Shown here: positions 32,808 to 56,376 of the stretch, piece by piece
Position numbering within the stretch: the stretch's first letter is position 1
Layout of the letters: each line of letters opens with the position of its first letter
Assembly: GCA_963751455.1 (NCBI GenBank)
Contig: CAVVUN010000001.1
Location: forward strand, 416,001 to 480,000
DNA: 64,000 nt
From: Nitrospirota bacterium
Lineage (GTDB): Bacteria; Nitrospirota; UBA9217
Direction of reading: 5' to 3'
The notes under the pieces: model-generated
What the model was told of the DNA's origin: nothing
Seen by the model: only the letters and a program-made list of their open reading frames with translations
Database searches by the model: none
Position numbers and translations under genes: made by a program

Positions 32808-32948
32808 CTGTTCTGTTTTGTAAAAGCGAATTTTATGAGATTTCAGGTAGTTTGTCAAGAAAAAAGCAAAGCGCCAAAGAGTTCAGCCGCTCTCTGACGC
32901 TATTTTTGACTGTATCCGGGTTAGTGTCCGGTTTATGACACTTTGACA

Positions 32949-35177: not shown

Positions 35178-35222
35178 TCGTGAATGACCTCACATGCAAT
35201 GATCTGAACTTGAAATCTACTC

Positions 35223-36821: not shown

Positions 36822-36834
36822 GTACTCCTCCTAG

Positions 36835-37800: not shown

Positions 37801-37872
37801 TGCAACCTCCGCCTTAATATGCGTATTGGTTAAAGTCTTTTCCGAGAACAAAGCGATTTTTTATTTTCACTA

Positions 37873-39399: not shown

Positions 39400-39546
39400 T
39401 ATCGAAAAAAAAGGTCGTTATTCGTCTTGCGGTGACGAGGCCCGTTTCGGGTCACGTATCACGTCGTTCGTCTTTAATACGTTGCCGATTAGATGCTCGA
39501 CGAAACGGGCATCGTTTGCGTTACCGTTACCCTTTGGTTCCGGTTC

Positions 39547-42500
39547 TTACCATGTTTCCCCGTAATGCTGCTGCAGGATCATCATGTCTTTTCCGTCAAC
39601 CATATTGTTTTTATCCAGGTCGCAGACAGGGTTCCAGTAGGTGTCTCCAGGCCTGCTGCCGAACGCATGGAACACCTTCTGAACGTCAGCCTCGTCCACG
39701 CTGTTTAGCGCTCCGCTGTTGTCCACGTTCCAGGGATGGACCGGGTCATACCCGGTTGCATAGTTTACCTTGGCGTTCGAGACACTGGTGGCCGGGTTTG
39801 CAACAAGGTCAGTCGCTGTAAACGATACGGTATAGAACGCTCCATCAACAAGAGTTATGCCCGTGCTTAGCGAATGAGTCCCCTGTGAAAGGTCCGCTGT
39901 CTGCATGGTATAAACCTGCGGAGAAGCAGTGTCCTGGCTTCCAGCTGTTCGGGTAAATGTTATGGTGCCGGACTGGGCGCTCTCGCTCAGGCTGTACGTG
40001 ACCGTAGCGCTGGATATAATGGCCTTGGTTGACGGGCTGGTGACCGTTATCACAACCGACTGGTTATCGAACTCAATATTAGTGCTCAATGCCGTCGCGC
40101 TGGTGTTTCCTGCTGTATCAACCATATTGCCGATCTCGAAGGTATATATCGCGCCGTTTACAAGGGCCTTCCCTGTATCGATCGTATGTCCGCCGGCGGT
40201 CAGTTCGGAACTCGACAACGGATAGGTATACGGTGAGAGCGCGTCTGTGGTGCCGCCTGTCTGGATTATCGTGATCGTCCCACCTGTTACCGTTTCACTC
40301 AGAGTGTAACTTATCCTTGCCGTATTCACTCTGCTGTTCGAAACCGGGCCGGTAATGGCTACGCTCGGGATTGTTTCGTCATAGGTTATGTTCGCGTTCG
40401 GTACACTGGCAGTGTTCCCCTGACTGTCAGTTGCTTGGAAAGTTACTGTATAGATGGCGCCGTTCACGAGCGTCAGGCCGGTATCGGCCGTATGACTGCC
40501 TGCGCTAGTTTCCGTAAATGTGTATGTACGCGCGGAGACCAGGTCCGTCACACCGCCCGTCCAGGTGAATGTCACTGTCCCGCTTGCCACATCCTTATCC
40601 AGCGTGTACCCGACTCTTGCGTTACTGATGACACTGTCCGCGGCCGGAGACGTGGAACTGAAAGAAGGCGGGGCTGTTGTCGCTGCAAATACCGCAGATA
40701 TAGTATGGTTCGCTGCAACCGAGGAGAATGAGTAGGACAAGACGGCGCCCACTGATACTCCATCAGCCAGAACATCGGCAACGTAGTATCCGGCAAGCGG
40801 GGTGATGGTGAAGCTCTGGCTTGATCCGTGATTTACAGATACAGGGCCTGAGGGCGAAACTGTTCCGCCCGTTGTCGCAGATGCAGTGATCGTATACGTA
40901 TTGATCGCGAAAGAAGCATCGATCGTATGGCTTGCAGTAACAGAGGTAAACGTATACGCTGAGATAATCCCTTGTGATATGCCGTCTATGAGAACATCTA
41001 TGATGTGATATCCGGTGTTCGGAGTAATCGTAAATGTCTGATCAGATCCATAGTTAACCGTTATGGATGGTGACGGATTGATTGAACCACCGGTTCCGAT
41101 GTTCGCGGTAATCAGGAATGTATCTATCCCAAACGAAGCATCTATCGTGTGGTTCGCCGTTACCGTGGTAAATGTATACGAAGAAACGATGTTCTGCGAT
41201 ACACCGTCAATAAGAATACCTGTGATATGGTATCCGGCGCCTGGTGTTATGGTGAATGCCTGGTCCGCTCCGTAGTTCACGGAAACCGCGCCCGTCGGCG
41301 AAATGGATCCACCTGCGCCTGTCGTGGCCGTAATTGTCGCTGACGTGACTGTTGTGAAGTTCCAGCTGTAATCGGCAGCAAGCCCATTTCCTGCCAAATC
41401 CTGCGCGCCGGTTGACAGCGTTGCCGTATATGTGGTCCCGGTCGCGAGTGACGACGAGGGGGTGAAGGTCGCTGTTTTCGATAGCCCGTCATACCCGACG
41501 GTTCCTGTCACGCCGGTCACAATAAAGCTCGATGCAATAGTCGTCTGGTCCATGTCTTCGCTGAATGTCGCGGTGATCGCCGTGTCCACCGGAATATTCG
41601 CTGCCCCCGCTGTCGGCGTGACCGAAGAAACCAGTGGAGGTACTGTATCCAGGAGGACCGTGTCGCTGTATGCGGCCGACCAGTTTCCTGCATTGTCCTT
41701 GAACTTGGCATATACCGTCTTGAGGCCGTCTCCCGACGGTAAATTCCATGATCTTGAGGGAGCGCGCGTTTCCGGCGTTGTGTAGGAGATACCATCATCG
41801 GAGAACTGCATTTCGGCACAGCCGCTGCCGATGTCCGTGCAGGTGAGCGTCAGTGAAACAGCGGGGCTGGCGGTCCTGCCTGTGCCGCCGTTGACAAAAA
41901 TTGAAACAGTTCCGCCCGGAGCCATGGACGCTCCAAGAATGGTACCGTAGTTTCCTGCAACAAGCGCGGTGTCACCACCCACAGCGACTGCGTTGAGTCC
42001 ATTCGTTGTTACATCCATTGTTCTTTCATTCCAGTTGGTTCCATCAGTAGACGACAATATCGTGGAAGATCCGGCAGCCAGGAAAGTGTTGTTGCCGAAT
42101 GCAATTCCGCGAAGATCGCTCGATGTCGGAGAGGACGCCGGGGACCAGTCGACTCCGTCAGCTGACGTCAGTATCGTTCCGGAAGCTCCTACTGAGATGA
42201 ACATGTTATTTGCAAACGTGATCCCATACAGGTCTGTGGTAACTCCTGATGGTCCGAGGGTCCAGGTAGTTCCGTTACTCGAGGTCATGATCGTTCCCTG
42301 ATAGCCTACTGCGACGAACAGTCCGTTGCCGAAAGCCACGTCGTAGAGCATGTAGTCGGAATAATGATCGATCATCGCCCAGTTGATACCGTCCGGAGAG
42401 GTAAGTGTCAGGTATCCCATTGCGCCTTCGATTCCGCCTCCGACCGCTACGAACATATTATTTCCGAAAGCAACTCCATAAGGATCATATATTGTGGTTC

Positions 42501-45500
42501 CGGAATCCGCAGCCGACCAATTCATTCCGTCACTGGAAGAGATGACAGCGCCGTTAACACCCACGGATACGAATGTCCCATTGCCGAATGTGACATCTTT
42601 CAGGTTATTCGTGGTGGGTGATGTGGCCGAAGTCCATGTATTTCCGTCAACGGACGACAGTACCGCTCCTCCGCTGCCTACGGCGACAAACGTGTTATTT
42701 CCGTAGGTCATTCCCGCCAGATCACTCTTCGAACCCGTGGTTCGGTTGTTCCATGCGCTCCCATCGGCCGATGTGAGTATGACATTCGGCCAACCAGTCG
42801 CTATATAGAGGTTATTAGCGAAAGAGACGCTGCTGAGATTGTCGGTGATTCCGGAAGATTTCGGCGTCCAGGAAATGCCGTCGGTTGAAGACAGGATGGT
42901 CCCTGAATCGCCGACAGCCATGAACGTTCCGATTCCGTCGAACGCAACTCCATAGATCCAGTTCGCCTGGCCGGTCGAATGGGATGTCCAGATTAAACCG
43001 TCTGATGAGGTGAGAACAGTGCCGTTATAAACAGTGACAACGAACGTATTATTGCCGAAAGCCGCATCTGTCAGCCAGTTCGTGGTGCCCGAAGTACTGT
43101 TTGTCCACGTGACGCCGTTGTCTGAAGACGTAAGGATTGTGCCGTTATAGCCGGAAGCAACAAAAATACCGTTGCCGAAAGCCACACCGAAGATATCATT
43201 CGCGGTATTTGATGTCCTGGCTGTCCATGTTACTCCGTCCGGAGATGTAACGATCGCGCCGGCTGCTCCAACCGCGACAAACTGGTTATTCTGGAAAATG
43301 ACTTTAATAAGCTCACTGGCGGTTCCCGATGTCCTGTTTGTCCATGTGATGCCGTCGGACGATGTCAGGATCGTGCCGGCGCCTCCGACAGCGACAAAGG
43401 TCCCATTGCCGAAAGCAACGCTGTCCAATATATAACTCGTTCCCGACGTCCGCATGGTCCAGGAGATGCCGTCCGCAGAGGTAAGGAGTGTTCCGTTGTA
43501 CCCTGTTAGTACGAACGTGCCGTTTCCGTACGCAGCCTCCTGCAGCTGGTTTCCCTGCGGGAGCGGATTTCTCCACTCCCATATATCGAGAGAGCCGCCC
43601 TCCGACGGTTCGGGCGGGGTCGTGTCGAGCGTGATAGTGGCCGTTACGGCGCTCGACAGACTTCCTGCGCCGTCCTGGAACTTGACAAAAACCGTCTTCG
43701 GCCCGTCACCTGAAGAAAGGTTCCAGGTCGTGGTCGTTGCATACGAGGCCAGACCCGTATAGTTCACGTTGTCATTGCTGATCTGCATCTGGCTGCAGCT
43801 GCTGGCCGCATCAAAGCAGGTGAACGCAAGAGTAACCGCCGGATCGTTCGTGAAGGAAGCGCTGCCGTTGATCGAAAGCGTGCCCGTCGGAGGCGTGATG
43901 TCGACGATACTTAAAACGAGGGATGGTGAATAGGACACGTTCCAGGACAACCCACCGCCGGGCGACGGAATGTTCAAAGTTCCGGTCTGTGAGGCGTACG
44001 TCATGACTGTATACGTCTGGCCGGTTGCAAGTGTATGTCCACCAACCAGGTTCACGATCATGGACCCGCCAAGGGATGCATTCCCGCTGACCGCAAGCTG
44101 GTCGTACTGGCCTGTTCCTGTGCCGCCCAGATCGATATTGATGACGCTCGATGCTGTCTGGGGAAGTGGTCCGGTTACATTCAGTGTGCCCGAAGTTCCT
44201 GGCGCTGCAGGATCGATCGCGCCGTTGTTCGTGAACGTCCCGGACGACACATCAAGCGTCCCAGAGCCCTGGATTAATCCTGTATTAGTCAATGCGCTGA
44301 TCGGCGACACAGTCCCGGTCTGGACATCGAGAATACCGCTGTTGTTAAACGGTATACCGAGCGCGGTCGCGCCTGTCGTGGTGGTCTTCCTGAACGTACC
44401 TGAATTGTTGAATATGCCGCCGGTACTGTTGGCCATATTCACGTCACTCTGGACCTCGAAGATCGATCCCGTCTGGTTATTGATGGTCCCGTTGTTGTAG
44501 AAGTACAGAGGTCCGGAGCCTCCCCAGGTCGCTGTTCCGGCTATATTTAACACCCTTGTATCAAGGTTCTTACTCAATGTACCGCTTATCGAGAGCGTCC
44601 CTCCGGATGGAATAACCGTGCTTCCCGTGCCGGTCATGTATCCGTCGTTCCATGTTGCCGTCTGTGCGGTCACAATACCGCTGCCTGAGAGGTATCCGTC
44701 CGATATGTTCAAACCCGTAGTCGTTGAGTTCGCATTATCGAAGTTAACCGTGGCGCTGCCCGATAAGGTCGTTATGCCGGTTACGTCGTATGTTACCCCT
44801 GTGCCGATCGTCGTAGTGCCGCCGTTGTTAAAGTTGATCCCTCCGGTCCCGCTAAGCGAAGCAGGAGAATTGATGGTGTATGTTGCGCTGCTGAACACAA
44901 GTGTGCCGGGCTTCGTTGCCGTAAATAATCCCGTGCCGGTTCCTCCGCTGTTCAAAGACACAGAACCGCTCTGTATGTCCATAGCACCGTTGTTGTTGAA
45001 CGGTATACCGACCGTTGTCGCACCCGTTGCTGCGGTGGTCTTCCTGAACGTACCGGAATTGTTGAATAGGCCGCCGAAACTGTTGGACATGTTCGTATCA
45101 TTCTGGACATCGAAGAAGGCTCCCGTCTGGTTGTTGATGGTCCCGTTGTTGTAGAAGTACATATACCCGGTGCCTGTCCAGGTGGCTGTGCCGGCTATAT
45201 TCAACAGCCTTGCATCAAGGTGCTTACTCGGTGTCCCGCTTATAGAGAGCGTCCCACCGGACGTAATAACCGTGCTTCCTGTACCGCTCATGTATCCGCC
45301 GCTCCATGTTGCTGTCTGTACGGTCACGATACCACTGCCCGAAAGATACCCCGCCAAAACCACCAACCCGACCGTACTCGCGTTCGTGTTAAAGGCCGCT
45401 GCGGCCGCGCCCCCGGTCACGCTCGTCACACCCGCTACATTGTACGTCACCCCGGATGCGATCGTCGCGGTACCGCCGCTGAAGTCGATCGTGCCTGTCC

Positions 45501-48500
45501 CTCCCATATTTCCCGCATCAATGCTGTGCGTACCACCGCTGAACCGCAGTGTTCCGGGAGATGTTGCAATAAACGAACCTGTCGTATGCGTACCGCCGTT
45601 GTTCAATGAGACGATGCCGCTCTGTATATCCACGCTCCCGCTGTTATTGAACGGGATAGCGATGGTAGTCGTACCCGTTGCAACCGTCTTCCGGAACGTG
45701 CCGTAGTTAGTGAAAATTCCTCCCGATGAGTTCTGCATGGGTACATTGCTCTGGATATCGAAGATCCCGCTCACCAGGTTATTGAATTTCCCGTTGTTGT
45801 AGAAGTACATCCAACCCGTGCCGCTCCACGTTGCCGTACCGTTGTTGTTCAAGGTCCGGGTGTCCACGTTCACGCTGCTCGCACCGCTGATCGAAAGGGT
45901 GCCGTTCACGTCCGTGCTGCCCGAGCCGCCCATGGTACCACCCGTCCAGGTCCCGGTTGTGGCCGAAACAACGCCGCTCCCCGTCAGCGTACCGCTCGAA
46001 ACCAGCAGGCCGACCGTAATGGCATTCGTGTTAAAGGCTGCGGCAGTCGCACCGGTCACGCTCGTCACACCCGTTACAAAGTACGTAACCCCCGATGCGA
46101 TCGTCGTGGTCCCGCCGCTGAAGTCGATCGTGCCCGTCCCGCCCACATTTCCCGCGGCGATGCTGTGCGTACCGCCGCCGAACCGCAGGGTTCCGGGAGA
46201 TGTCGCACTAAGCGAACCCGTCGTATGCGTGCCGCCGTTGTTCAACGATACGGTGCCGCTCTGGATATCAACGCTGCCGCTGTTATTGAACGGGATGGAA
46301 ATCGTGCTCGTAGCTGTCGCAACTGTTTTCCGGAACGTACCATAGTTGTTGAACACACCACCTGATGAATTTTGCATAGTCTGGTCGTTCCGGATATCGA
46401 AAAGTCCGCCCGCCTGGTTATTGATAGCGGCATTGTTGTAGAAGTACATCCAGTTCGTGTTGGTCAACGCTGTCGTGCCGCTGTTGTTCAGAGTTCGGGT
46501 ATCAAGATACACACCGCTCGAGCCGCTGATGGTAAGCGTAGCTCCCGACAGAATATTCGTGCTCCCCGTGCCGCTCATCGTGCCGCTCGTCCACGTCAGC
46601 GAAGTCCCGGATACAGTTAACGCGCTGCTTCCTCCCAGGGTACCGCCGGACAACGTCAGTGGTACAGTAGTCGTTATCGGAGTGTTGATATTGACCGTCC
46701 CGCTGTTGATCGCCATCGCTCCGGTCCCGCCGAGCGATGCCCCGGCATCAAAATTATGAGTACCGCTTACAAATTGAAGAACACCCGGAGATGTCGCTGT
46801 AAACGGGCCCGTATACGTGCCGCTGGTCAACGATACGATGCCGCTCTGTATTTCGACGTTCCCGCTGTTAATGAACGGAATCGCGATCGTGCTCGTAGCT
46901 GTTGCAACTGTTTTCCGGAATGTGCCGTAGTTGTTGAAAACACCACCCGATGAGTTCTGCATGGTCTGGTCGTTTCGGATATCGAAAAGTGCACCCACCT
47001 GGTTATTGATAGCGGCATTGTTATAGAAGTACACCCAGTTCGCGTTGGTCAACGCAGTTGTACCGCTGTTATTCAAGGTTCGGGCGTCCAGGCTGACGCT
47101 GCTGGTGCCGCTGATCGTAAGCGTAGCTCCCGACAGAATATTCGTGCTCCCCGTGCCGCTCATCGTGCCGCTTGTCCATGTCAGCGAACTTCCCGAGACG
47201 CTTAACGTGCCGCTTCCTCCCAAGGTGCCGCCAGACAGCGTCAGTGGCACAGTACTCGTTATCGCAGTGTTTATATTGACTGTGCCGGTGCTGATCACGA
47301 TCGCTCCCGTTCCTCCGAGCGAAACTCCTGTATTAAAATTATGCGTGCCGCCGCCAAACCGCAGTGTTCCGGGCGATGTCGCAGTAAACGGGCTCGTATC
47401 CGTGCCGCCATTGCTCAACGATACGGTGCCGCTCCGGATATCCACGCTACCGCTGTTATTGAATGGAATAGAGATCGTGCTCGTAGCCGTTGCAACCGTC
47501 TTCCGGAACGTCCCATAGTTATTGAACACACCACCCGATGAATTCTGCATGGTCTGATCGTTTTGGATATCGAAAAGTCCGCCCGTGTTGTTATTGATAG
47601 TGGCATTGTTGTAGAAGGACATCCAGTTCGTGTTGGCCCACACAACCGTACCGCTGTTGTTCAAAGTCCGGGTGTCCAGGCTAACGCTGCTCGTGCCGCT
47701 GATTGTTAGCGTCGCGCCCGAAACAATATTCGTGCTCCCTGTGCCGCTCATTGAACCGCCCGACCAATTGTATGCCCCGTTCACCGTGAGGCTGCCGGGC
47801 CCTGTTATTGTCCCACTGGAATGATTCAGGATACCGTTTGTATTAATCGAGCTGGCATTGTTCAACGTCAGCGTGTTCCCGGATATCGAGAGTGTTTGTT
47901 TAGTAGAGGATCCGCCGAGGGAGAGGCTCGCTACTGTCGCATTCGTATCAAGTGTGACTGTACAATTGATACAACCGTCTCCGATTACGACATCATTCAA
48001 GTCAGTTGGAACCCCAGCCGGACTCCAGTTACCCGCTGTGTTCCAGAGACCACCTGCTGAAGAAATCCATGTCTTAACCGATGAAGAAACATTCAGCGTT
48101 AACCCCGAGCTATTATACGCAGGGCTCCACATTTTACCGCTAAGCGCTGGGTAATCGTAAGTCGAGTATTGCCCGATGGCTGCTATGACCATAGAAGAAT
48201 CAAGCACGAAGAATGTATTACCAATGGCCGGCACAAAGCCGCTCAGAAGAAGCACCCTCAGAGTGCCGCCGAGAGTATAAGTATCGGTCTGAGTTCCAAA
48301 TACTATCTGGTCATAATCGACACCAGCGGTCGCCTGCCCCTGCATTTCTATCTCCGTTATGCCGGCAGCGGCGTGCGTAAACGGCCCTGAGAATGTTAAT
48401 TTCCCGATTGCACCAACGCCTCCCGGCCGGATGGTTCCCTCATTGGTAATCAGCACTCCAGTAGACAGGGTACCGTTTCCTTCTATTGACCCTGTGGATG

Positions 48501-49107
48501 TATTCGTGAGCGATCCGCTAGTGTTGAGCGTCGGAGGTGAAGCACCCCCGACGAGCGTGATCAAGCCGCTGTTCGTATGAACGCCCCCGGCCTTATTGAA
48601 AGACATGCCCTTATTAATCGTGATCGTTCCCTGGTTAACAACGTTACCATTAATGTAGTTCTCGGTAATAGATGTACCGGAATCGGTAATCATGCCGATA
48701 GCCGTGTTGGTGATGGTGCCGCTGCTTATAAGAGTTGCACCTCCTGTTGAGACAGAGTTGATCTGAATTGTTCCGTTATTGGTAACTCCATTTACGGCTG
48801 TCAGGCTGATTGCCGACCCGACATTGGCGATTTTCAAGGTCGAGCCGCTTCCGATAAAGAGCGAATTTACGGTTACACTCAAATTTGATGCATCCACCAA
48901 GCCGGACGACGCAGGGATATCGACGTCATCCGTCGAGGTAGGAACGGCATTCGTGGACCAGTTAGCTGCATCCGTCCATGATGTCGTTGTCGCGCCGCCG
49001 TCCCAAGTGACGGCTGCGCTGGCAACTGAAGAGTAAAATGTGAGAAGCAGCAGACTAGACCATAACAGCAAGCGAATATATCGTGGATTATTGGAAGGCA
49101 TAGTCAC
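39547..49107 (-). CDS. Giant (3186 aa) secreted surface protein with beta-helix repeats, propeller, Ig-like domains and a dockerin-like C-terminus
   Basis: Signal peptide; ~200-aa G/T/N/S repeats; FGNGTFVAVG..GTILTS.DG..WT repeats; TATFSEDMD Ig domain; C-terminal DLDKNNMVDGKD. Confidence 0.9.
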   Translation of the reverse strand: MTMPSNNPRYIRLLLWSSLLLLTFYSSVASAAVTWDGGATTTSWTDAANWSTNAVPTSTDDVDIPASSGLVDASNLSVTVNSLFIGSGSTLKIANVGSAISLTAVNGVTNNGTIQINSVSTGGATLISSGTITNTAIGMITDSGTSITENYINGNVVNQGTITINKGMSFNKAGGVHTNSGLITLVGGASPPTLNTSGSLTNTSTGSIEGNGTLSTGVLITNEGTIRPGGVGAIGKLTFSGPFTHAAAGITEIEMQGQATAGVDYDQIVFGTQTDTYTLGGTLRVLLLSGFVPAIGNTFFVLDSSMVIAAIGQYSTYDYPALSGKMWSPAYNSSGLTLNVSSSVKTWISSAGGLWNTAGNWSPAGVPTDLNDVVIGDGCINCTVTLDTNATVASLSLGGSSTKQTLSISGNTLTLNNASSINTNGILNHSSGTITGPGSLTVNGAYNWSGGSMSGTGSTNIVSGATLTISGTSSVSLDTRTLNNSGTVVWANTNWMSFYNNATINNNTGGLFDIQNDQTMQNSSGGVFNNYGTFRKTVATATSTISIPFNNSGSVDIRSGTVSLSNGGTDTSPFTATSPGTLRFGGGTHNFNTGVSLGGTGAIVISTGTVNINTAITSTVPLTLSGGTLGGSGTLSVSGSSLTWTSGTMSGTGSTNILSGATLTISGTSSVSLDARTLNNSGTTALTNANWVYFYNNAAINNQVGALFDIRNDQTMQNSSGGVFNNYGTFRKTVATATSTIAIPFINSGNVEIQSGIVSLTSGTYTGPFTATSPGVLQFVSGTHNFDAGASLGGTGAMAINSGTVNINTPITTTVPLTLSGGTLGGSSALTVSGTSLTWTSGTMSGTGSTNILSGATLTISGSSGVYLDTRTLNNSGTTALTNTNWMYFYNNAAINNQAGGLFDIRNDQTMQNSSGGVFNNYGTFRKTVATATSTISIPFNNSGSVDIQSGTVSLNNGGTHTTGSLSATSPGTLRFGGGTHSIAAGNVGGTGTIDFSGGTTTIASGVTYFVTGVTSVTGATAAAFNTNAITVGLLVSSGTLTGSGVVSATTGTWTGGTMGGSGSTDVNGTLSISGASSVNVDTRTLNNNGTATWSGTGWMYFYNNGKFNNLVSGIFDIQSNVPMQNSSGGIFTNYGTFRKTVATGTTTIAIPFNNSGSVDIQSGIVSLNNGGTHTTGSFIATSPGTLRFSGGTHSIDAGNMGGTGTIDFSGGTATIASGVTYNVAGVTSVTGGAAAAAFNTNASTVGLVVLAGYLSGSGIVTVQTATWSGGYMSGTGSTVITSGGTLSISGTPSKHLDARLLNIAGTATWTGTGYMYFYNNGTINNQTGAFFDVQNDTNMSNSFGGLFNNSGTFRKTTAATGATTVGIPFNNNGAMDIQSGSVSLNSGGTGTGLFTATKPGTLVFSSATYTINSPASLSGTGGINFNNGGTTTIGTGVTYDVTGITTLSGSATVNFDNANSTTTGLNISDGYLSGSGIVTAQTATWNDGYMTGTGSTVIPSGGTLSISGTLSKNLDTRVLNIAGTATWGGSGPLYFYNNGTINNQTGSIFEVQSDVNMANSTGGIFNNSGTFRKTTTTGATALGIPFNNSGILDVQTGTVSPISALTNTGLIQGSGTLDVSSGTFTNNGAIDPAAPGTSGTLNVTGPLPQTASSVINIDLGGTGTGQYDQLAVSGNASLGGSMIVNLVGGHTLATGQTYTVMTYASQTGTLNIPSPGGGLSWNVSYSPSLVLSIVDITPPTGTLSINGSASFTNDPAVTLAFTCFDAASSCSQMQISNDNVNYTGLASYATTTTWNLSSGDGPKTVFVKFQDGAGSLSSAVTATITLDTTPPEPSEGGSLDIWEWRNPLPQGNQLQEAAYGNGTFVLTGYNGTLLTSADGISWTMRTSGTSYILDSVAFGNGTFVAVGGAGTILTSSDGITWTNRTSGTASELIKVIFQNNQFVAVGAAGAIVTSPDGVTWTARTSNTANDIFGVAFGNGIFVASGYNGTILTSSDNGVTWTNSTSGTTNWLTDAAFGNNTFVVTVYNGTVLTSSDGLIWTSHSTGQANWIYGVAFDGIGTFMAVGDSGTILSSTDGISWTPKSSGITDNLSSVSFANNLYIATGWPNVILTSADGSAWNNRTTGSKSDLAGMTYGNNTFVAVGSGGAVLSSVDGNTWTSATSPTTNNLKDVTFGNGTFVSVGVNGAVISSSDGMNWSAADSGTTIYDPYGVAFGNNMFVAVGGGIEGAMGYLTLTSPDGINWAMIDHYSDYMLYDVAFGNGLFVAVGYQGTIMTSSNGTTWTLGPSGVTTDLYGITFANNMFISVGASGTILTSADGVDWSPASSPTSSDLRGIAFGNNTFLAAGSSTILSSTDGTNWNERTMDVTTNGLNAVAVGGDTALVAGNYGTILGASMAPGGTVSIFVNGGTGRTASPAVSLTLTCTDIGSGCAEMQFSDDGISYTTPETRAPSRSWNLPSGDGLKTVYAKFKDNAGNWSAAYSDTVLLDTVPPLVSSVTPTAGAANIPVDTAITATFSEDMDQTTIASSFIVTGVTGTVGYDGLSKTATFTPSSSLATGTTYTATLSTGAQDLAGNGLAADYSWNFTTVTSATITATTGAGGSISPTGAVSVNYGADQAFTITPGAGYHITGILIDGVSQNIVSSYTFTTVTANHTIDASFGIDTFLITANIGTGGSINPSPSITVNYGSDQTFTITPNTGYHIIDVLIDGISQGIISAYTFTSVTASHTIDASFAINTYTITASATTGGTVSPSGPVSVNHGSSQSFTITPLAGYYVADVLADGVSVGAVLSYSFSSVAANHTISAVFAATTAPPSFSSTSPAADSVISNARVGYTLDKDVASGTVTFTWTGGVTDLVSARTYTFTETSAGSHTADTGLTLVNGAIYTVTFQATDSQGNTASVPNANITYDETIPSVAITGPVSNSRVNTARISYTLSETVTGGTITIIQTGGTTDALSPYTYPLSSSELTAGGHTIDTGKALVNGAIYTFEIGNMVDTAGNTSATALSTNIEFDNQSVVITVTSPSTKAIISSATVTYSLSESAQSGTITFTRTAGSQDTASPQVYTMQTADLSQGTHSLSTGITLVDGAFYTVSFTATDLVANPATSVSNAKVNYATGYDPVHPWNVDNSGALNSVDEADVQKVFHAFGSRPGDTYWNPVCDLDKNNMVDGKDMMILQQHYGETW
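44330..47760 (-). repeat. About six internal tandem repeats (~585-655 bp) in the giant gene
   Basis: FNN.GTFRKT units recur near 47490, 46900, 46315, 45680, 45035 and 44380. Confidence 0.85.
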
Positions 49108-49365
49108 CTCGCGACTTACTGAAAAATACTTTAGTAGCAGTTTTTTTTGTATATGAGTTCACTTGCGAATTGTAATTTGAGGTTTTGCAATCTTTTGTAT
49201 CAGGTCGAGTATCGTATTTTTTTAAAAAAATGACAAGTGAATTCTTACATTAAAGCGGGGTATTTTAAGGGTATGGTTATTGTAGATTGATTATCTACAA
49301 AATGTATGGAAGTTAGAAACAAAAAGGGCCGGTCTTGAACTAACCGGACTTTTATATTCATTTTA

Positions 49366-49408
49366 TGGTGCACTGGGGTGACTCGAAACCCGAACGCGGT
49401 TTAGGACA
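49366..49408 (-). repeat. Degenerate copy of the tRNA-Arg 3' half (att-like, copy 3)
   Basis: tggtgcactggggtgactcgaaacccgaacgcggtttaggaca compared with tRNA 56300-56345. Confidence 0.88.
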
Positions 49409-49471
49409 TGTCGGGTCTGCAAATCGTTAGCAGTTATTATTCGGAATACTTCACCTCCCATGATTAGTTGA

Positions 49472-49497
49472 AAGCCGGCCTCCAATGAGGCCGGCTT
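49472..49497. terminator. Hairpin downstream of the cytochrome gene
   Basis: aagccggcctc-caat-gaggccggctt. Confidence 0.6.
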
Positions 49498-49587
49498 ATC
49501 TTACCCTGAAGCGCTTTGAGGTATAAACCAAATCCCTCTTTGCGAGATCGCATCACATTCCCCTGAATTAGCTTTGCCTGCCGGGGT

Positions 49588-51045
49588 CTATTCAATGCTT
49601 GATCCATTCGTTGAGAGCGATTTCAGATATTCGATCAGATCGTTCTTTTCCGGATCGCTCAATCCCAATCCAAGTACCCTATTGTAATGGTTGACGACAT
49701 CCAGAAGCGTCGCGAATCTGCCGTCATGATAGAAGCGGCCCTTATTCTCGGGCTTCATGTTGATGCCGAGTTCCCGGACGAATATGCCTGCAAGGTTCAT
49801 CGTCTTGTATGCTTTCCCCGGCGACCGGTCTGATTGGAAGCTGTCAATCCCGATGTCTTCGGGTTTATGAGCATTCCATCCAGGCTCGGTCCAGAGAGGC
49901 TCGATATGGCAAGTCCCGCACAGCGCTTTTCCTCCGAAAAGCTCGTCCCCGCGCGAGGCCGCTGCTGCGTCAAAATCGACACCCGCTGTCGGCTTCGGAC
50001 CAAGAAGCGACAGCTGGTAAAGATGCAGGCCCGGAAGCTTCTTTGTGACCCGGTCGCTGTCCGCATCAACCGTTATATGGCCCTTCTTGAGAGCAACGGC
50101 GATCGGAAACCGGGGCGCGCTGTCCGGGAACTGCTGCGGATCGTCAAGCCGGGGGTCATGAAAATTTCCGATTCCTCCCATTTCGTGAACCGCAACAAGG
50201 GCGTTCCAATAGGGCACGCTCCCCCAGTCTGCAGTCCAGGTATGCATGTTATAACCGGCCATGCCATAGGCATTCGGAATCAGAGTGGCGGCGGGTTTGC
50301 CGTCAGGCCGGAACGCCTTGCCGTCGAAAAGCAGTTGGGCATCAAATTTTCCCGGCCCCCAACTATTCAGCACAGTCCGTACCGTTGCAGCGTCAATTGG
50401 AGCATCAACGACTTTCAGCTGGTTCACGATCGCACTCAAATCGGGCGCGAGGGCGATGATCGCTCCGACGTTTAAATCGCGGTTGGCCCAGCCGTCAAGC
50501 CGGTGACCAATGCCTGGCGCGAACGAATTGTCGACGGTTGAATGACACAGGCTGCACTGAATGCCGATTGATTGAAGCGAACCGTCGTTGTTGAAGAAAC
50601 CCGTAATGCCGAGCACTGCGTTCAGCTTGAACAGCGCAAGAGTCGTGGCCGGATCATCGAGGTCCACCTTTCCCTGTTTAATCTGATCGACAAGACTCGA
50701 GGGAAGAGCGTCCACGTCGACTTTGAGTCCGACATCGGGAGCGGTCTTCGGGCTTACACCCGGCCCGACTCCCCCGAAATTGGATCCCTCGATAGCTCGA
50801 TGAAGTTTGAGCGTATCACCCAAGAACTTTTCGTCACCGAAGGTATCGAACCGAAAGGTCTGCTGCCCTTCCTTCAGGAGATCTTCTGCCGTAGTACCCG
50901 TGGTATTCGAAACAGGATTCGTCTGGGTCGTCAGCGAATTCTGACCGGCAGCGTTATTATCCGCTTTTGCCGAACTGCAGCTGGACACTAGCACCCACAC
51001 AATAACGGGCAGTACCAGCAACTCTATTCCGTGAAATTTTCTCAT
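49588..51045 (-). CDS. Di-heme c-type cytochrome lipoprotein (peroxidase-like C-terminus)
   Basis: Lipobox VSSC; CSLCH and CGTCH heme sites; FYHDGRFATLLDVVNHY..EKNDLIEYLKSL. Confidence 0.85.
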   Translation of the reverse strand: MRKFHGIELLVLPVIVWVLVSSCSSAKADNNAAGQNSLTTQTNPVSNTTGTTAEDLLKEGQQTFRFDTFGDEKFLGDTLKLHRAIEGSNFGGVGPGVSPKTAPDVGLKVDVDALPSSLVDQIKQGKVDLDDPATTLALFKLNAVLGITGFFNNDGSLQSIGIQCSLCHSTVDNSFAPGIGHRLDGWANRDLNVGAIIALAPDLSAIVNQLKVVDAPIDAATVRTVLNSWGPGKFDAQLLFDGKAFRPDGKPAATLIPNAYGMAGYNMHTWTADWGSVPYWNALVAVHEMGGIGNFHDPRLDDPQQFPDSAPRFPIAVALKKGHITVDADSDRVTKKLPGLHLYQLSLLGPKPTAGVDFDAAAASRGDELFGGKALCGTCHIEPLWTEPGWNAHKPEDIGIDSFQSDRSPGKAYKTMNLAGIFVRELGINMKPENKGRFYHDGRFATLLDVVNHYNRVLGLGLSDPEKNDLIEYLKSLSTNGSSIE

Positions 51046-51374
51046 GGTGGTTCCTCCTTGGTGTTAATTTACCGGTTTTGAAGAAGAGGCGCTGCCCGTT
51101 TTTCCGGTCGTTGCGTTTTCGCTAATCGGGATCGGATTACTCAGCGCTTACCGAACTACAGTGAGTCTTTTAAGTATTTGCAGTATAAAGAACGGGCAGC
51201 TAAGACGCCGCTTTACGGGAACCATCATTCGTCCGACGGACAAGCGGTTCTTAAAATTCGAGCATTTTTTGGAAGATCAGTAAGAAGGGTTTTAGGGTTA
51301 AAAACGAATGTAAATCAGCAGACCTTTAAAAAGGCCGATACAGTCCTGTATAGGCCTTAAACCATTATTTATTA

Positions 51375-51420
51375 TGGTGCCCCTGGGGTGACTCGAATAC
51401 CCGGCACGCGGTTTAGGAAA
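51375..51420 (-). repeat. Copy of the tRNA-Arg 3' half (att-like, copy 2)
   Basis: 45 of 46 bases identical to 56300-56345. Confidence 0.95.
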
Positions 51421-51525
51421 TGTTGGGCAACACCATCTTTGTTTGATGATCAATTACATAAGATAATCATGGGGATTCTCGACCGACTCGTTAATGCGGT
51501 GGAAGACTTCGATTGCACAAACAAA

Positions 51526-51555
51526 TGAACAGGCGGGGCGAGCCCCGCCTGTTCA
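51526..51555. terminator. Hairpin downstream of the PKD protein gene
   Basis: tgaacaggcggggc-ga-gccccgcctgttca. Confidence 0.7.
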
Positions 51556-51563
51556 ACTCGATC

Positions 51564-53408
51564 TTATTGTTTATCCCTCATATCGTGAGGACAAATCGCT
51601 TCCGTTGAAACAGCAGTCGTATTGCCGGCATTGTCGGTTATGACGGCCATGATGGTATAGTGCCTGCCATCCTTGTCAGTGCCGTCCCTCCACGCTTCCA
51701 GAGGAATCGTCGTGTTGAACCCGCTGATGACGGGCTCTACCGTGCCGTATTCGTCCGTTACCGTAAAGACGACCGACCCGATTCCCGACGTTCCGTCCGA
51801 CGGACCGCCATTCACCGCGACGTTTACCATCTTGTGGTTCGGCGGCCAGAGGATGCCAGGTGTCACGGAGATGTTCCCTGCGGGCGCCGTATTGTCGATT
51901 TTGATCGTCAATGTTGTCCCAGGCTCCTCGACGTTTCCGGCATTGTCCGCTGCTTTGAACGAAACGCTGTGGACTCCGTCGCCACGGACAGCTATTGTTG
52001 CCGAATCGCCTGCGGTACTCGCGGTCGCGGTATCTACAACTGTGCGAATTTCCTTGACGCCGGTACACGCGTCAGCCGAATCGACCGTTATCAGCACGTC
52101 CGACCGGTACCAGCCGTTGTCGCCTGGGATCCCGGCGATGCTTCGGAGGGTCGTGGTCGGCGGCGTGGTGTCGCGGATCGACGCGGTCACCGTATCCTGC
52201 GCTGTCCCGCCCTTGTTGTCGTCGACCGTAAGAGTAATTTCGTGCTCGCCCAGCGGGAGAACAACCGCGAGCGTTTCACCCGTGCCCAGGATCGTGTCGC
52301 CTTCTTTCCAAGTATAGGTAAGGACGTCGTTGTTCACATCTGAAGACCCAGAGCCGTCCAGGTTCACAGACGCTCCCTGGGGACCGGCGCATTCCACGGT
52401 TTGGTCCGGACCGGCATCGGCCACGGGCGGATCGTTGGGTGAAACATACAGGATCTGGACTGCAGTGCCCAACTTCCCGGAAACCGCAACCAAGCTGGTT
52501 CCATCGTACCGGTATATCTTTCCGACGCCGGTTGAACTACGGACATATCCTGCTTCGCCGCCCACTGCGACATAGAGGTTCGAACCGTTCTTGGCCAGCG
52601 AAAGGATCTGGTTACTGTAGTGATCGGACGTGACCGTAGCCTCGGTTATGGCCGTGGAGCCGTCATAGCTGCGAAGCTTCAAAACATCGCCGAAAAAGAG
52701 CTTGTCATTGAAGGTTTTTACCGCCCAGATATTCGACCCGCCGACGTACAGGGACGGCCAGCTCGTGCCATTGGACGTGGAATACATCATGCCGTAATAG
52801 GCGCTGGAAAACAATTTGTCTTTATACGGTTCGAAGTCCCAGATGCAACTCCTGCCGGCACTCAGGACCGTCTGGTTCGTGGTGCCGTTGTATCTCCATA
52901 TCCTGTCTGAGTTCCAATCGCCGAGGTAAAGGGCATCGTCCTTTTCCCATACTTCCATCGCTCGCACGCCGGTCCCCAGAGAGGACAATACCAGGGTCCA
53001 GGCGCCGGTGGCTTCTTCGTAACGATACAAACCCCGGGTGCCGCTGACGGTGCCCGCGTAGAGTTTCCCTCTCCAGACCACAAGCGATGCGACCTGGTAG
53101 TCTATCGTCTTGAGCAGGGTCCATGTCGTTCCGCTGTCGTGCCGATAGATCTGGCCTGTATTGTTACTGGACATCGTGCCTGCATAAAGATGCCCGTTAT
53201 ATTCAACCAGGCTGAGAACGACTTTGCCGAGTGTCGGCGATATGGAAGTCCAGGTGTCGCCGTTTTCCGATTCATAAACCACGCCTGGATTGGCGCTTCC
53301 CGCATACATCTTGGCTTCGGCGAGGTCGGCTCCAGCAACCCCGAGAATGAAACAAAATATAAGCGCCGGGAAAATCCTAACAATCGTATGGGTCAATTTC
53401 TTTAACAT
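51564..53408 (-). CDS. Secreted beta-propeller + PKD/Ig-like domain protein
   Basis: Signal peptide, YNGHLYAGT repeats, PPVADAGPDQ..LDGSGSSD (PKD), LWPPNHKMV C-terminal domain. Confidence 0.85.
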   Translation of the reverse strand: MLKKLTHTIVRIFPALIFCFILGVAGADLAEAKMYAGSANPGVVYESENGDTWTSISPTLGKVVLSLVEYNGHLYAGTMSSNNTGQIYRHDSGTTWTLLKTIDYQVASLVVWRGKLYAGTVSGTRGLYRYEEATGAWTLVLSSLGTGVRAMEVWEKDDALYLGDWNSDRIWRYNGTTNQTVLSAGRSCIWDFEPYKDKLFSSAYYGMMYSTSNGTSWPSLYVGGSNIWAVKTFNDKLFFGDVLKLRSYDGSTAITEATVTSDHYSNQILSLAKNGSNLYVAVGGEAGYVRSSTGVGKIYRYDGTSLVAVSGKLGTAVQILYVSPNDPPVADAGPDQTVECAGPQGASVNLDGSGSSDVNNDVLTYTWKEGDTILGTGETLAVVLPLGEHEITLTVDDNKGGTAQDTVTASIRDTTPPTTTLRSIAGIPGDNGWYRSDVLITVDSADACTGVKEIRTVVDTATASTAGDSATIAVRGDGVHSVSFKAADNAGNVEEPGTTLTIKIDNTAPAGNISVTPGILWPPNHKMVNVAVNGGPSDGTSGIGSVVFTVTDEYGTVEPVISGFNTTIPLEAWRDGTDKDGRHYTIMAVITDNAGNTTAVSTEAICPHDMRDKQ

Positions 53409-53842
53409 ATTTTCCCTCCAATTTATTTATTAGGTAAAAGCTGGTGCTTACACTACCGCATACAAAACATCTTCATTCAATGAATCCGCGAAAATACTGC
53501 GCAATGCACCATCCGTCAGGGGTCATACATAAGTACCTCCTTTTTTCAAGTGTTGTTATCAGGTGGTCTTTGTCCCGCCTCGTTCATTTCGTTCATCTGG
53601 AGATGTAGTGCCCTAGCCACTTTTAAAAAACTTAATACTTTCTCATTACACAAAATTAACTCTATCCCAACTTAACTAGTTTGTCTCGGCTTTTTTTGTG
53701 AACTTTTTCGGCATTTCTTGCGATTTCAACATACTTTGTCACTTTCAAACGGAAAAATACAGAAAAGAGCACTTAGAACGCGGAAAAAATAATTCAGATT
53801 AGACAAAAAATGAAGGGCAAGTCTTGGGGTTAAATCTCACGT

Positions 53843-54086
53843 TATTCTTATCTGAGCTAATTTGAAGAGACTGGCGATTCAGAAGCTCAAGATCGATAAA
53901 ACCTTTGTCGAAGACATCGGAACCAGTTCAATGACCGGGCGATTGTCCGCGCCTTCTCCTCATAGCCTACTCAATGAATTTGCAGGTGGTAGCGGAAGGA
54001 TTGAAAAAGAAAACCAACTCTCATTTTTTTCGCGAGCAGCAGTGCGACGTGGCCCAGGATTTCCTCTTCAGCGAACCGTTAATTAA
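53843..54086 (+). pseudogene. Frameshifted C-terminal remnant of an EAL phosphodiesterase
   Basis: LKRLAIQKLKIDKTFVEDI, NLQVVAEG, IEKENQL and FREQQCDVAQDFLFSEPL are spread over different frames. Confidence 0.85.
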
Positions 54087-54218
54087 CTTCGGAGAATTTT
54101 CGGGAGTTGGCGATGATGGGGAAATAACAAATAACAAGAATCGTCAAGAATTGACAATAATCGCTAGCAATTTTATAAAAAAAGGCCGATACAATTCGGC
54201 CTAATCTATTGATTATAT

Positions 54219-54264
54219 TGGTGCCCCTGGGGTGACTCGAACACCCGGCACGCGGTTTAGGAAA
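54219..54264 (-). repeat. Exact copy of the tRNA-Arg 3' half (att-like, copy 1)
   Basis: 46 of 46 bases identical to 56300-56345. Confidence 0.97.
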
Positions 54265-54396
54265 TGTCGGGCAATCACGCGATTGCTTGATTATCAATTA
54301 CATAACATAACCATATCTGCACGAAAACCAGCATTCTTGATGTAATCGGGTTAGAAAAAGGTTAGGATTTCCACTTCAACTAGCAGACAAAATACT

Positions 54397-55104
54397 TTAC
54401 TTCCTAAGTTGATTTTCTAGCAACTCAATTAAATGCAAGTGGGTTTTAGAATCAGTGGGACTCAAAGTGTAATATATTTTCTCCGTAGGGGCGGTCCCAA
54501 GTCTCGGCTCAATAGTCAATGGTTTAGACAGTATTTGAATGTTATTATCCAAGAGTGATTGATCCAGATCTTTGTAAGTAACATTGAATGAGAGTGATCT
54601 GGGAATTATGTCTATCTTCGCCTTATTATCAACTGCAGAAGCACAGATTTTCTTTGCATCATTCCTTAAAAAGGTCAAAAACACATTAGAGAACAATTTA
54701 TCAAAGTTAAAATCAAAAGCCACGACACACTGTGTTTGTGTTGTTTTTAATTTAAAATTATCTTCTTTGAACTGTTTTTGTAAATCAATCTCAGATAAAA
54801 TCTGAGCTATCTCTTGATAGAACTGATTAGCAATTTCTGTATCCCCATTAATATTAATCAATATCGATGTTCGATCAATTATTAATCGGTCAATGGGATA
54901 TATCTTGTTGCTATACTTGTACTCACCCATTTTCATTGTAACTGACACCAAATTGTGATTTTCATCCTCACCGATTTCTGTCTCTCTAAATAAAAATCGA
55001 TTCGTAAAAGATTGCAGGTTGGTTGCTGTAACCACTTGCCTAAATGGAATTTCATCTACTATGAATAATCTTTTATCAATTACACTGAGCTGAATCAGTT
55101 TCAT
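54397..55104 (-). CDS. Hypothetical protein, third gene of the hicAB operon
   Basis: 235-aa AT-rich ORF with an AGGAGG SD, 10 bp after the hicB stop. Confidence 0.75.
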   Translation of the reverse strand: MKLIQLSVIDKRLFIVDEIPFRQVVTATNLQSFTNRFLFRETEIGEDENHNLVSVTMKMGEYKYSNKIYPIDRLIIDRTSILININGDTEIANQFYQEIAQILSEIDLQKQFKEDNFKLKTTQTQCVVAFDFNFDKLFSNVFLTFLRNDAKKICASAVDNKAKIDIIPRSLSFNVTYKDLDQSLLDNNIQILSKPLTIEPRLGTAPTEKIYYTLSPTDSKTHLHLIELLENQLRK

Positions 55105-55114
55105 TACATTCCTC

Positions 55115-55717
55115 CTAAACTACATGTCTCTCAGTTTCTTCTTCATCAGAAGTAAAGCGATCTGTCCTTACAGAAGGCGGAGCATTCCACAATTCTCTTT
55201 CTTGAATGTGAGGTGTCCGGCTTTTCATGTAAGAATGTTGCAGCCATACGGGAGCACCAGCCACTATAACAGCATGCGCTTTTTGGCTAACAATTTCTCT
55301 CTCTAAATTGTTAATTTTCTGACTAATTGAAGTCATGGACTCTTCGAGGTGATGCTGAATAGCAGATCGCTCCAATCCTTCAGCCAGATATGTAAGAATC
55401 AATTGATTTAAACTAATTCCCTCCTGTTGAGCGCGATCATTCAATTTTTCATGCAATGATTTGGGGGTTCTAACTGTAATCCGGCCACTCGTCTCAATTG
55501 GTACGATAGGTTCTGGTATAGCCCAACCCGCTTTTATCGCTGTTTCAAGCCATTCATCTTTTACTTTGAGTCCCTTTTTTACAGCTTCTTCTGCGGTATC
55601 TGCATCAGCAATGCAACCGGGTAATTCTGGAAACTTAATAAAATATACTTTATCCTCGGGATAATACTCTAACGTCATACGATATTTTAAATTCTTATAA
55701 TAATTTAAATCTTTCAT
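55115..55717 (-). CDS. hicB: HicB antitoxin with a C-terminal extension
   Basis: FPELPGCIADADT.EEA..IPEP..SGRITVRTPKSLHEKL..A..EGISLNQ. Confidence 0.9.
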   Translation of the reverse strand: MKDLNYYKNLKYRMTLEYYPEDKVYFIKFPELPGCIADADTAEEAVKKGLKVKDEWLETAIKAGWAIPEPIVPIETSGRITVRTPKSLHEKLNDRAQQEGISLNQLILTYLAEGLERSAIQHHLEESMTSISQKINNLEREIVSQKAHAVIVAGAPVWLQHSYMKSRTPHIQERELWNAPPSVRTDRFTSDEEETERHVV

Positions 55718-56004
55718 ATCTTTTCTCCTTTATCTCCTAATTCTGAAACCTTCTGGGATAAGAGAATTTCTATTGCATCAATACACATTGTTATATATGG
55801 TTTTTTGACTTTTTTTTCTCCTCCGTGAGGTATTGCTACTCGAGGCAACATAACACCAATTAGTCGTTCATGATAAAAAATATAGCCATCAGATGTCCGC
55901 CTCTCCTCAAAGCCGAAAGCCCGCATGAGAGCCAAAATTTCATCAATCGTAACATTGCCTGGCCCTTCCTTTACTTTTTGCAATTTTTTTTCAGGCTTTG
56001 ACAT
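55714..56004 (-). CDS. hicA: HicA-family toxin
   Basis: MSKPEKKL..LMRAFGFEERR..IFYH..IPHGG..VKKPYI; ATGA overlap with hicB. Confidence 0.8.
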   Translation of the reverse strand: MSKPEKKLQKVKEGPGNVTIDEILALMRAFGFEERRTSDGYIFYHERLIGVMLPRVAIPHGGEKKVKKPYITMCIDAIEILLSQKVSELGDKGEKI

Positions 56005-56010
56005 TATTAT

Positions 56011-56040
56011 AGCATACGATGACATCACATATGATGTCAA
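56011..56040 (-). promoter_or_regulatory. hicAB promoter with palindromic operator
   Basis: TTGACA(56040-35)-18-TATGCT(56016-11); a perfect inverted repeat TGACATCA-N4-TGATGTCA (56020-56039) overlaps the -35. Confidence 0.75.
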
Positions 56041-56105
56041 GCAAAAAATTGCGATGGCCAGCGACTTGTAATAAGTGCTTTTATTTGTTGATTTTGTAGC
56101 CGAGG

Positions 56106-56135
56106 TTCGAACACCTGGCACGCGGTCTAGACAAC
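56106..56135 (-). repeat. Short degenerate tRNA-Arg fragment
   Basis: ttcgaacacctggcacgcggtctaga compared with ctcgaacacccggcacgcggtttagg. Confidence 0.75.
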
Positions 56136-56299
56136 CCGCATACCATGTGTCTAATTATGTTAATAATTCAATGGGTTCAGTCAATCAATATCAATTTCGA
56201 TCAATTAAGGTTAGAAAAAGGTTAGAAGTAAAAAAAAATAAAAAAAGGCCAATCGAGTCTTGTATTGGCCTTAACATCCCAGTTTTATTAAGTTTTATT

Positions 56300-56376
56300 T
56301 GGTGCCCCTGGGGTGACTCGAACACCCGGCACGCGGTTTAGGAAACCGCTGCTCTATCCACCTGAGCTACAGGGGC
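56300..56376 (-). tRNA. tRNA-Arg(CCT)
   Basis: Anticodon arm gcggt-ttCCTaa-accgc and encoded CCA. Confidence 0.97.

Follow-up and report, generated by a model that had tools for sequence, protein, structure and literature searches.

Integrase-free units stacked at the anticodon loop of a Nitrospirota tRNA-Arg(CCT) gene and their probable insertion by borrowed phage integrases

How can several small units of DNA accumulate behind a single tRNA gene when none of them encodes an integrase? The question is raised by the tRNA-Arg(CCT) gene of a Nitrospirota bacterium (GTDB lineage Bacteria; Nitrospirota; UBA9217), which lies in a 64,000-nt stretch of assembly GCA_963751455.1 (contig CAVVUN010000001.1, positions 416,001 to 480,000 of the forward strand). 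This whole stretch is called the window; its coordinates are used below, and all features of the array given by such coordinates are on the minus strand. The tRNA gene (56300..56376) was identified with ARAGORN, folds into a cloverleaf and has the same sigma-factor neighbour in most members of the family. A first-pass annotation, made from the sequence alone, had reported that its 3′ 46 nt recur at 54219, 51375 and 49366, and this is confirmed. Attachment site (att) copy 1 (54219..54264) is identical to the tRNA at 46/46 positions and forms the junction between the right end of unit 1 and the left end of unit 2. Copy 2 (51375..51420) aligns at 45/46, its single change breaking a T-stem pair, and copy 3 (49366..49408), the decayed distal boundary of the stack, matches in 40 of 46 columns with three 1-nt gaps and one change inside the 7-nt overlap. 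The corresponding BLAST E values in a whole-genome search are 9e-20, 2e-17 and 0.07. Together with the tRNA, which is the integration target and functionally the attL of unit 1, these copies delimit three units with att cores at both ends, and the core-to-core spacings (2081, 2844 and ~2010 bp) agree with the lengths of about 2.0, 2.8 and 2.0 kb first estimated. The identity of the copies to the tRNA begins one base 5′ of the 7-nt anticodon loop, again as had been observed, and the bases ahead of the core read CCGACA in copies 1 and 3 and carry a single change in copy 2. On balance, the sequence suggests that three integrase-free units were probably inserted successively at the anticodon loop by borrowed integrases of the phage lambda type, unit 1 coming from a dedicated family of non-autonomous cassettes.

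The units carry cargo genes alone, with no integrase of their own and no replication or packaging-interference module, features that mark tycheposons and PICIs. None of the 15 PF00589 matches of the genome is inside the window, a custom integrase profile has no match there, and a relaxed tblastn search of the array for remnants, using 10 integrase sequences, gives a best E of 0.05; the initial statement that neither the units nor the window hold a recognisable integrase or remnant is therefore upheld.

The same site was compared in 36 loci from 36 genomes of the family, 34 of which contain the tRNA; several are short contig ends, so that the unit count is a lower bound. The tRNA-Arg(CCT) gene and the neighbouring sigma-factor gene are conserved across the family. 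Most relatives have no att copy at the site; in the rest it is occupied by small units of other kinds, by an integrase element of 5.7 kb or by the end of a prophage. At least 4 of the 34 loci (L025, L029, L032 and L033) contain a complete att-bounded unit of 2.1-11.8 kb, none of them with a tyrosine integrase. A pattern search, which detects only copies not preceded by G, found att copies in 5/63 other family genomes. The locus L032, at the same tRNA in another genus, carries the hicA-hicB-ORF cargo (ORF, open reading frame) of unit 1 with 57/94, 99/200 and 119/235 identities, flanked by different arm repeats. The same module occurs in genome G399 without a tRNA nearby, and the ORF is found near an integrase at a tRNA-Gly in genome G140. 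Relatives thus differ in units, arms and module location, from which it follows that the locus varies among genomes and that cargo and ends reassort; its content is not identical in all relatives, a comparison that the first-pass annotation had proposed. The empty sites, the other units, the integrase element and a phage attachment site (attP), all using the same 45-47-nt att, support the sequential insertion at the tRNA that had been suggested.

Which integrase, then, could act on these units? The only viral contig matching the tRNA pattern, L052, contains the same 46 nt, which are an attP because phage genes lie on both sides. Within a few bases of this attP lies the end of a gene for a tyrosine integrase of 360 aa, and the attP core is preceded by CCGACA, as in window copies 1 and 3. 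The arm motif of L052 recurs at either end of L032, the cassette with hicAB and no integrase, and the right arm of L032 matches the end of a prophage at the same att (L053, in G087) in 77/92 columns. An integrase 44-46% identical to that of L052 is found in a 46-kb prophage of G027, with a 45-nt loop-type att at tRNA-Arg(CCG), and a second, distant integrase family is present at tRNA-Arg(CCT) in the 5.7-kb element of G077, whose arms have a 12-bp period. The L052 integrase names a candidate helper family for the site. Among viral contigs it has no close relative besides itself.

The ends of the units were then considered for the sites such an integrase would need. In the left end of unit 1, a hairpin with a T-run resembling a terminator (56246..56271), homologous to the hairpins after the first two att copies, is followed by a pair of direct repeats with an 11-bp period (56209..56225), predicted to be arm-type integrase sites. 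The right end has an arm pair of the same motif and orientation (54349..54365), and the 17-mer that the two share occurs just twice in the 5.7-Mb genome, once per end. Unit 1 is the only one of the three with arm pairs at both ends. The left end of unit 2 (54163..54214) contains a match to the integration host factor (IHF) consensus (54202-54214), a hairpin (54183-54202) and one eroded arm repeat (54163-54174), and is identical in 81/124 aligned columns to the left end of the family locus L040; that of unit 3 (51332..51370) has a near-IHF match and a hairpin of the same family, with 38/45 columns matching L040. The left ends of all three units thus have hairpins of one family. The sequence used for scoring is what we take to be the IHF consensus; within the array its only exact match, a predicted site, is the one in unit 2, and many left ends among the relatives match it 2-5 bases past CCA. 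In the right end of unit 2, the 50 nt before att copy 2 agree with unit 1 at 38/50 positions and the arm pair is gone. At least six different arm motifs occupy equivalent end positions among the relatives. Judged from these ends, unit 1 looks recombination-competent and units 2 and 3, with eroded ends, look fixed. The earlier description of the units as minimal non-autonomous cassettes fits unit 1, which has intact arms and an internal second core; units 2 and 3 are indistinguishable from decayed islands. Beyond copy 3, a hairpin at 49327..49349 resembles those that follow the tRNA in att-less relatives (flanks of L017, L018 and L028) and is likely the original chromosomal flank.

The second core just mentioned (56111..56150, core 56122-56139) imitates the anticodon-stem core symmetrically but has an altered 7-nt spacer; it lies ~160 bp behind the tRNA, within an imperfect palindrome that extends over 40 nt (hairpin z -3.15). 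Resemblance to the tRNA extends to ~56090 in this region, forming a fourth, degenerate copy (~56090-56140, 30/46) that the first-pass annotation had missed; decay rising with distance from the tRNA, as first proposed, is accordingly true of the three junction copies and not of this one, a site of another kind that is the most degenerate yet the nearest to the tRNA. Among the relatives the second core has the consensus GCGGT-N7-ACCGC and lies 120-165 bases into the left end. Sites scoring at least 9/10 are present in 5 of the 34 loci, namely in all four of the complete units without an integrase and in one truncated end of an element, against a background rate of 0.013 per 300 nt. The second core is found in 4/4 complete integrase-free tRNA-proximal units versus 0/4 integrase-bearing ends (L052, L055, L050 and L163; Fisher p 0.03, kin included), or, over the 34 loci, in 4/4 complete units versus 1/30 others (p 1e-4), the one being the truncated end. 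In the phage L052, whose arms are those of L032, integrase codons occupy this position instead. The left arm pair is situated ~95-115 bases past the tRNA core and ~55-95 before the second core, and since it lies between the two, one arm pair could serve either core. Compared with the attP overlap, the second-core spacers are changed at 1-5 of their 7 positions; that of the window is shared with L029, which has neither cargo nor arms in common with it. As for the origin of the site, a relic of an integrase-promoter operator was considered and rejected, no such site being present upstream of the L052 or L055 integrases.

The second core is also found at other tRNAs and in another phylum. In the window genome (G000), an integrase-free unit of 2.6 kb at tRNA-Thr(CGT) (G000:C1:232479-235222 (-)) has a 48-nt att copy, an 11-bp arm pair and three ORFs, and at +134 the Thr anticodon stem is mimicked at 12/12 positions around a different loop. 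A mimic of the tRNA's own stem is seen at 1 of the 53 tRNAs of this genome, the Thr one, versus 13/2750 wrong-stem control pairs. A second Thr example, in an integrase-free Thr array (G271, L228), was dropped, its match sitting in a longer palindromic repeat that we take to be a repetitive extragenic palindromic (REP)-like element. A motif scan of GTDB genomes returned 57 loci; 33 with a tRNA/att primary match and a 7-nt spacer were kept, and 24 were dropped (18 without the primary match, 6 with an 8-nt spacer). The 33 still include L186 and L191, where the second match resembles a neighbouring or duplicated tRNA, a few likely chance matches in GC-rich DNA and four duplicates of known loci. 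Second cores at 26 of these 33 loci, from Nitrospirota and Actinomycetota, fall at +123-125 or +136-140, that is at 8 of the 31 allowed positions, the nominal binomial p of 3e-10 being overstated because kin are included. Matches outside Nitrospirota belong mostly to Thermoleophilia and Actinomycetes, have a longer palindrome and in several cases stand in integrase-free tandem arrays; three further GTDB units checked end to end (8.2, 11.6 and 9.8 kb) have no PF00589 match.

Several other loci of this kind were encountered. A two-unit integrase-free array is present at tRNA-Thr(CGT) in another Nitrospirota family (L232:26-3800), and in Actinomycetota several tRNA-Arg(CCT) att copies form integrase-free tandem arrays (L210, L220, L227, L334-L335 and L344). 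Genome G409 has eight tRNA-Arg(CCT) att matches, two of its contigs seemingly repeating one stretch. Two actinobacterial integrase genes (L343:13257-14330 and L336:6515-7080) run with their 3′ end up to or through the tRNA-Arg(CCT) att core; they lie beside a tRNA-Ser pair, both are apparently frameshifted, and in G406 the tRNA-Arg gene is far away. In the window genome, two tandem units of 4.6 and 3.1 kb with 45-nt att copies and matching arm pairs are stacked at tRNA-Val(CAC) (G000:C3:139005-146844 (+)).

A mechanism that would account for the array can be outlined as follows. Integrases of temperate phages using the same site would act in trans on the units, and each newcomer would enter the restored tRNA, shifting the older units outward. 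Unit 1 probably belongs to a dedicated family of non-autonomous cassettes and remains competent. Its left end reads tRNA, hairpin, arm pair and a second symmetric core 120-165 bp in, and its right end arm pair and core. Units 2 and 3 are likely older relatives of unit 1 whose ends have eroded and which are now fixed. The second core is predicted to bind integrase without exchanging strands, because its binding halves are kept while the 7-nt spacer drifts, and would recruit or tie up the helper integrase on the shared arm pair. Most likely, it holds the helper integrase on the cassette end and thereby biases the choice between excision and stable residence. It could also widen the range of helpers, since the core is common to all integrases of a tRNA while the arms vary. 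The second core, as a sequence feature, argues for a dedicated non-autonomous class and not for mere decay. A broader proposal, which we put forward tentatively and rate as possible and a little short of probable, is that these units belong to an undescribed class present in more than one phylum: minimal hitch-hikers on phage integrases, consisting of an attP skeleton plus cargo and marked by a spacer-altered second core that tracks the target (Arg or Thr) and captures or redirects the helper, so that tRNA genes would act as phage-driven cassette arrays.

The rival that survives best regards the units as ordinary decayed islands, that is as internally deleted prophages or integrase islands kept by their cargo or toxin-antitoxin genes and moving at most in cis, with the second core as an inherited scar, left when att halves once recombined. 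Decay to cis-mobilizable elements (CIMEs) in the course of tandem accretion is described (PMC5704250), and a number of our own observations weigh on the same side, against borrowed phage integrases and a purpose-built cassette. In G077, the 5.7-kb integrase element is followed by a 15.7-kb integrase-free unit and then a decayed att, a tandem layout suited to mobilisation in cis. Integrase C-terminal remnants are found at the same att in L163 and, in short form, in the second tRNA-Val(CAC) unit of this genome, neither Val unit having a stem mimic; lone left arms of the L055 type exist in four relatives, and the L032 right arm matches a prophage end. In L025, L183 and the window, the second core runs on into tRNA T-arm sequence, which is what one would expect of an old att copy. 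Furthermore, the window second core is a weak match (8/10, or 9/10 with a one-base insertion) with a profile score that 1.9% of null windows attain, and a significant second core is missing from units 2 and 3. In unit 2 the half-match at a plausible position is no better than 40% of null windows, and in unit 3 a half-match is likewise at a plausible position while the best score is elsewhere, at an unconvincing place; both candidates were rejected. The second-core counts include related genomes, which are not independent, and the GTDB loci were chosen by the motif itself. The second core is missing from many integrase-free distal units, and the Actinomycetota locus L198/L350 has it together with integrase genes 1.5-5 kb downstream. 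As to helpers, neither of the two integrases known for this site has a close relative in the window genome (best 28% and 32% identity), so that the units are without a known resident helper; the two viral matches to the unit 1 arm motif both lack a tRNA att and were read as chance.

Nevertheless, a neutral scar is not expected to keep both halves while its spacer drifts, nor are fixed distances in two phyla and the switch to a Thr stem at the Thr unit expected of one. The phage with the L032 arms has integrase codons and no second core at that position, and no integrase trace is present in any window unit. We therefore consider decay of ordinary islands a serious but unlikely explanation of the array as a whole. 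Less likely still, and in our view improbable, is that the second core is a true recombination site comparable to attI, at which a helper integrase captures or swaps cargo between cores, or through which a helper phage integrates into the excised circle and carries it. Such an entry point would fit the independent assortment of cargo, arms and second core (the window cargo recurs in L032 with other arms, and the window spacer in L029 with other cargo and other arms) and the hicAB-ORF module of G399 that has no tRNA nearby. However, tyrosine recombination generally needs a matching overlap, and the spacers depart from that of attP at up to five positions; neither a partner site whose spacer matches nor a module inserted at a second core was seen, and a search of viral contigs for att plus second core gave 0 matches. 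An assembly artefact, or a local duplication of the tRNA end without integrase, is very improbable, as the 46-nt repeats have distinct flanks and mismatches, all start at the anticodon loop, and recur with the same boundaries in other genomes and in the phage attP. Insertion by borrowed phage integrases, with unit 1 as a dedicated cassette, remains the reading we prefer.

The cargo genes of units 1-3 are all on the strand of the tRNA, as had been described. Unit 1 contains a hicA-like toxin gene (55714..56004), a hicB antitoxin gene (55115..55717) and a 235-aa ORF (54397..55104). The HicB assignment is above the Pfam cut-off (PF05534 and PF15919), and that of HicA, obtained with a query minus the first two codons, the start being read from the sequence, is below it (E 0.012); the hicA-like product has 57 identities over ~94 aa with its L032 counterpart. 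The 235-aa ORF has no Pfam match, belongs to unnamed Atlas clusters and has homologs in 3 of 400 other genomes of the phylum. Promoter-like sequence with a palindrome upstream of hicA (56006..56040) is conserved in L032, and it is here that the homology between the two cassettes begins. Unit 2 encodes a 614-aa protein with PKD/Ig-like domains (51564..53408; Pfam, NCBIfam), probably secreted, whose domains have paralogs elsewhere in the genome and in 10/63 family genomes. Unit 3 encodes a 485-aa di-heme c-type cytochrome (49588..51045) with two CxxCH motifs at residues 164 and 376 and weak MauG/peroxidase similarity; it is found in 3/63 family genomes, none of which has a tRNA within 1.5 kb of it. 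Of the cargo first predicted, HicB, the ORF, the PKD/Ig protein and the two-CxxCH cytochrome thus stand, while HicA stays below the cut-off and Pfam gave no confirmation of the propeller assigned to the 614-aa protein. In the 800-bp leader of unit 2 (window 53410-54080), two segments have 68-84% matches at about ten other places of the genome and are possibly small repeats.

Around the array, tRNA-Val(GAC) is 23.5 kb from tRNA-Arg(CCT) in the window and within a few hundred bases of it in many relatives; the rest of this interval (window 32808-49320) contains the gene of a repetitive surface protein (3186 aa) together with four others and has no att boundary. Far from the array, a degenerate second tRNA-Arg(CCT)-like sequence (G000:C12:361367-361443 (+)) has intact anticodon and T arms and a broken acceptor stem. 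Elsewhere in the genome, integrase-bearing islands with phage-like genes are present at tRNA-Gly(GCC) (G000:C9:417858-433103, 15 kb) and tRNA-Glu(TTC) (G000:C15:708021-728194, 20 kb), and three related tyrosine recombinase genes of ~450 aa with a common N-terminal extension, one of them in pieces, were identified (G000:C1:553957-555288, C2:446969-448360 and C3:356578-358123). In addition, many tRNAs are followed directly by GC-rich hairpin repeats of ~120-190 nt, each of which closes with 16-23 nt from the 3′ end of its tRNA (G000:C15:1131067-1131570; also tRNA-Ala(GGC), Leu(CAA), Leu(TAA), Arg(ACG), Arg(TCT) and Asn, with three in tandem at tRNA-Ala(CGC)).

Integrase-free units of this kind escape island finders that depend on an integrase, and such islets at tRNAs are usually dismissed as debris. 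In the unbiased Nitrospirota set the second core is confined to units without an integrase; as a signature for which any genome can be screened, it would tell hitchers built for the purpose apart from the products of decay. The L052 integrase and the L032 cassette, with their common arm motif, make the movement of integrase-free islets in trans directly testable, and an accessory core modulating a lambda-type intasome would be a new control element for integrase engineering.

How do the units compare with known systems? Their ends can be likened to the layout of lambda and KplE1, in which core-type and arm-type sites are combined with IHF (in the parts of PMC2951348 consulted). According to the sections of PMC5704250 available to us, CIMEs lack integration genes, retain attL and attR and accrete in tandem at tRNA 3′ ends with composite junctions. 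The units resemble them in keeping both ends, in lacking integration and transfer genes and in being stacked at a tRNA, the newest inferred to be next to it. They differ in that CIMEs are decay products of integrative and conjugative or mobilizable elements (ICEs, IMEs) moved in cis by conjugation, whereas the candidate helpers here are temperate phages; no autonomous element adjoins the units in this genome, and ends related to theirs are found on phages and on a small integrase element, not on a recognised ICE. Moreover, unit 1 is 2 kb long, has intact arms and no remnant, and contains a second core, a feature those sections do not mention for CIMEs. The anticodon-centred att corresponds to class A of the islands counted by Islander, which share the displaced 3′ tRNA fragment starting from the anticodon loop and the tandem arrays (PMC4383910, as far as consulted). 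Islander, however, requires an integrase of each member of a tandem, so that the present units, none of which encodes one, are invisible to it. The tycheposons and tRNA islands of Prochlorococcus also place cargo at tRNAs with partial tRNA copies between neighbours, newcomers pushing the old ones outward; in the portion of the preprint consulted (bioRxiv 10.1101/2020.12.28.424599) they have their own integrase and often replication genes, unlike the cargo-only units described here. Integron cassettes, CALINs (groups of attC sites with no integron integrase) and MITEs (miniature transposable elements with inverted repeats) are likewise co-oriented units of one to three genes with a recombinase encoded elsewhere. 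CALINs and MITEs are recognised recombinase hitchers, and phage-integrase hitchers at tRNA sites are not listed in the parts of PMC11389934 consulted. The att of the units is lambda-type, tRNA-derived and equipped with arms, in contrast to attC; the array has neither a resident integrase nor a common promoter, and, unlike in integron cassettes, a terminator-like hairpin stands behind every junction. The initial term "integron-like" is for these reasons retained as an analogy alone, the junctions having phage lambda-type anatomy. Titles and abstract openings, the scope of our literature search, contain no description of a second core in integrase-free att elements. Altogether, the stacking of integrase-free att-bounded elements is a known form of accretion, and the new parts are a second core that tracks its target and, with it, a matching integrase from a phage.

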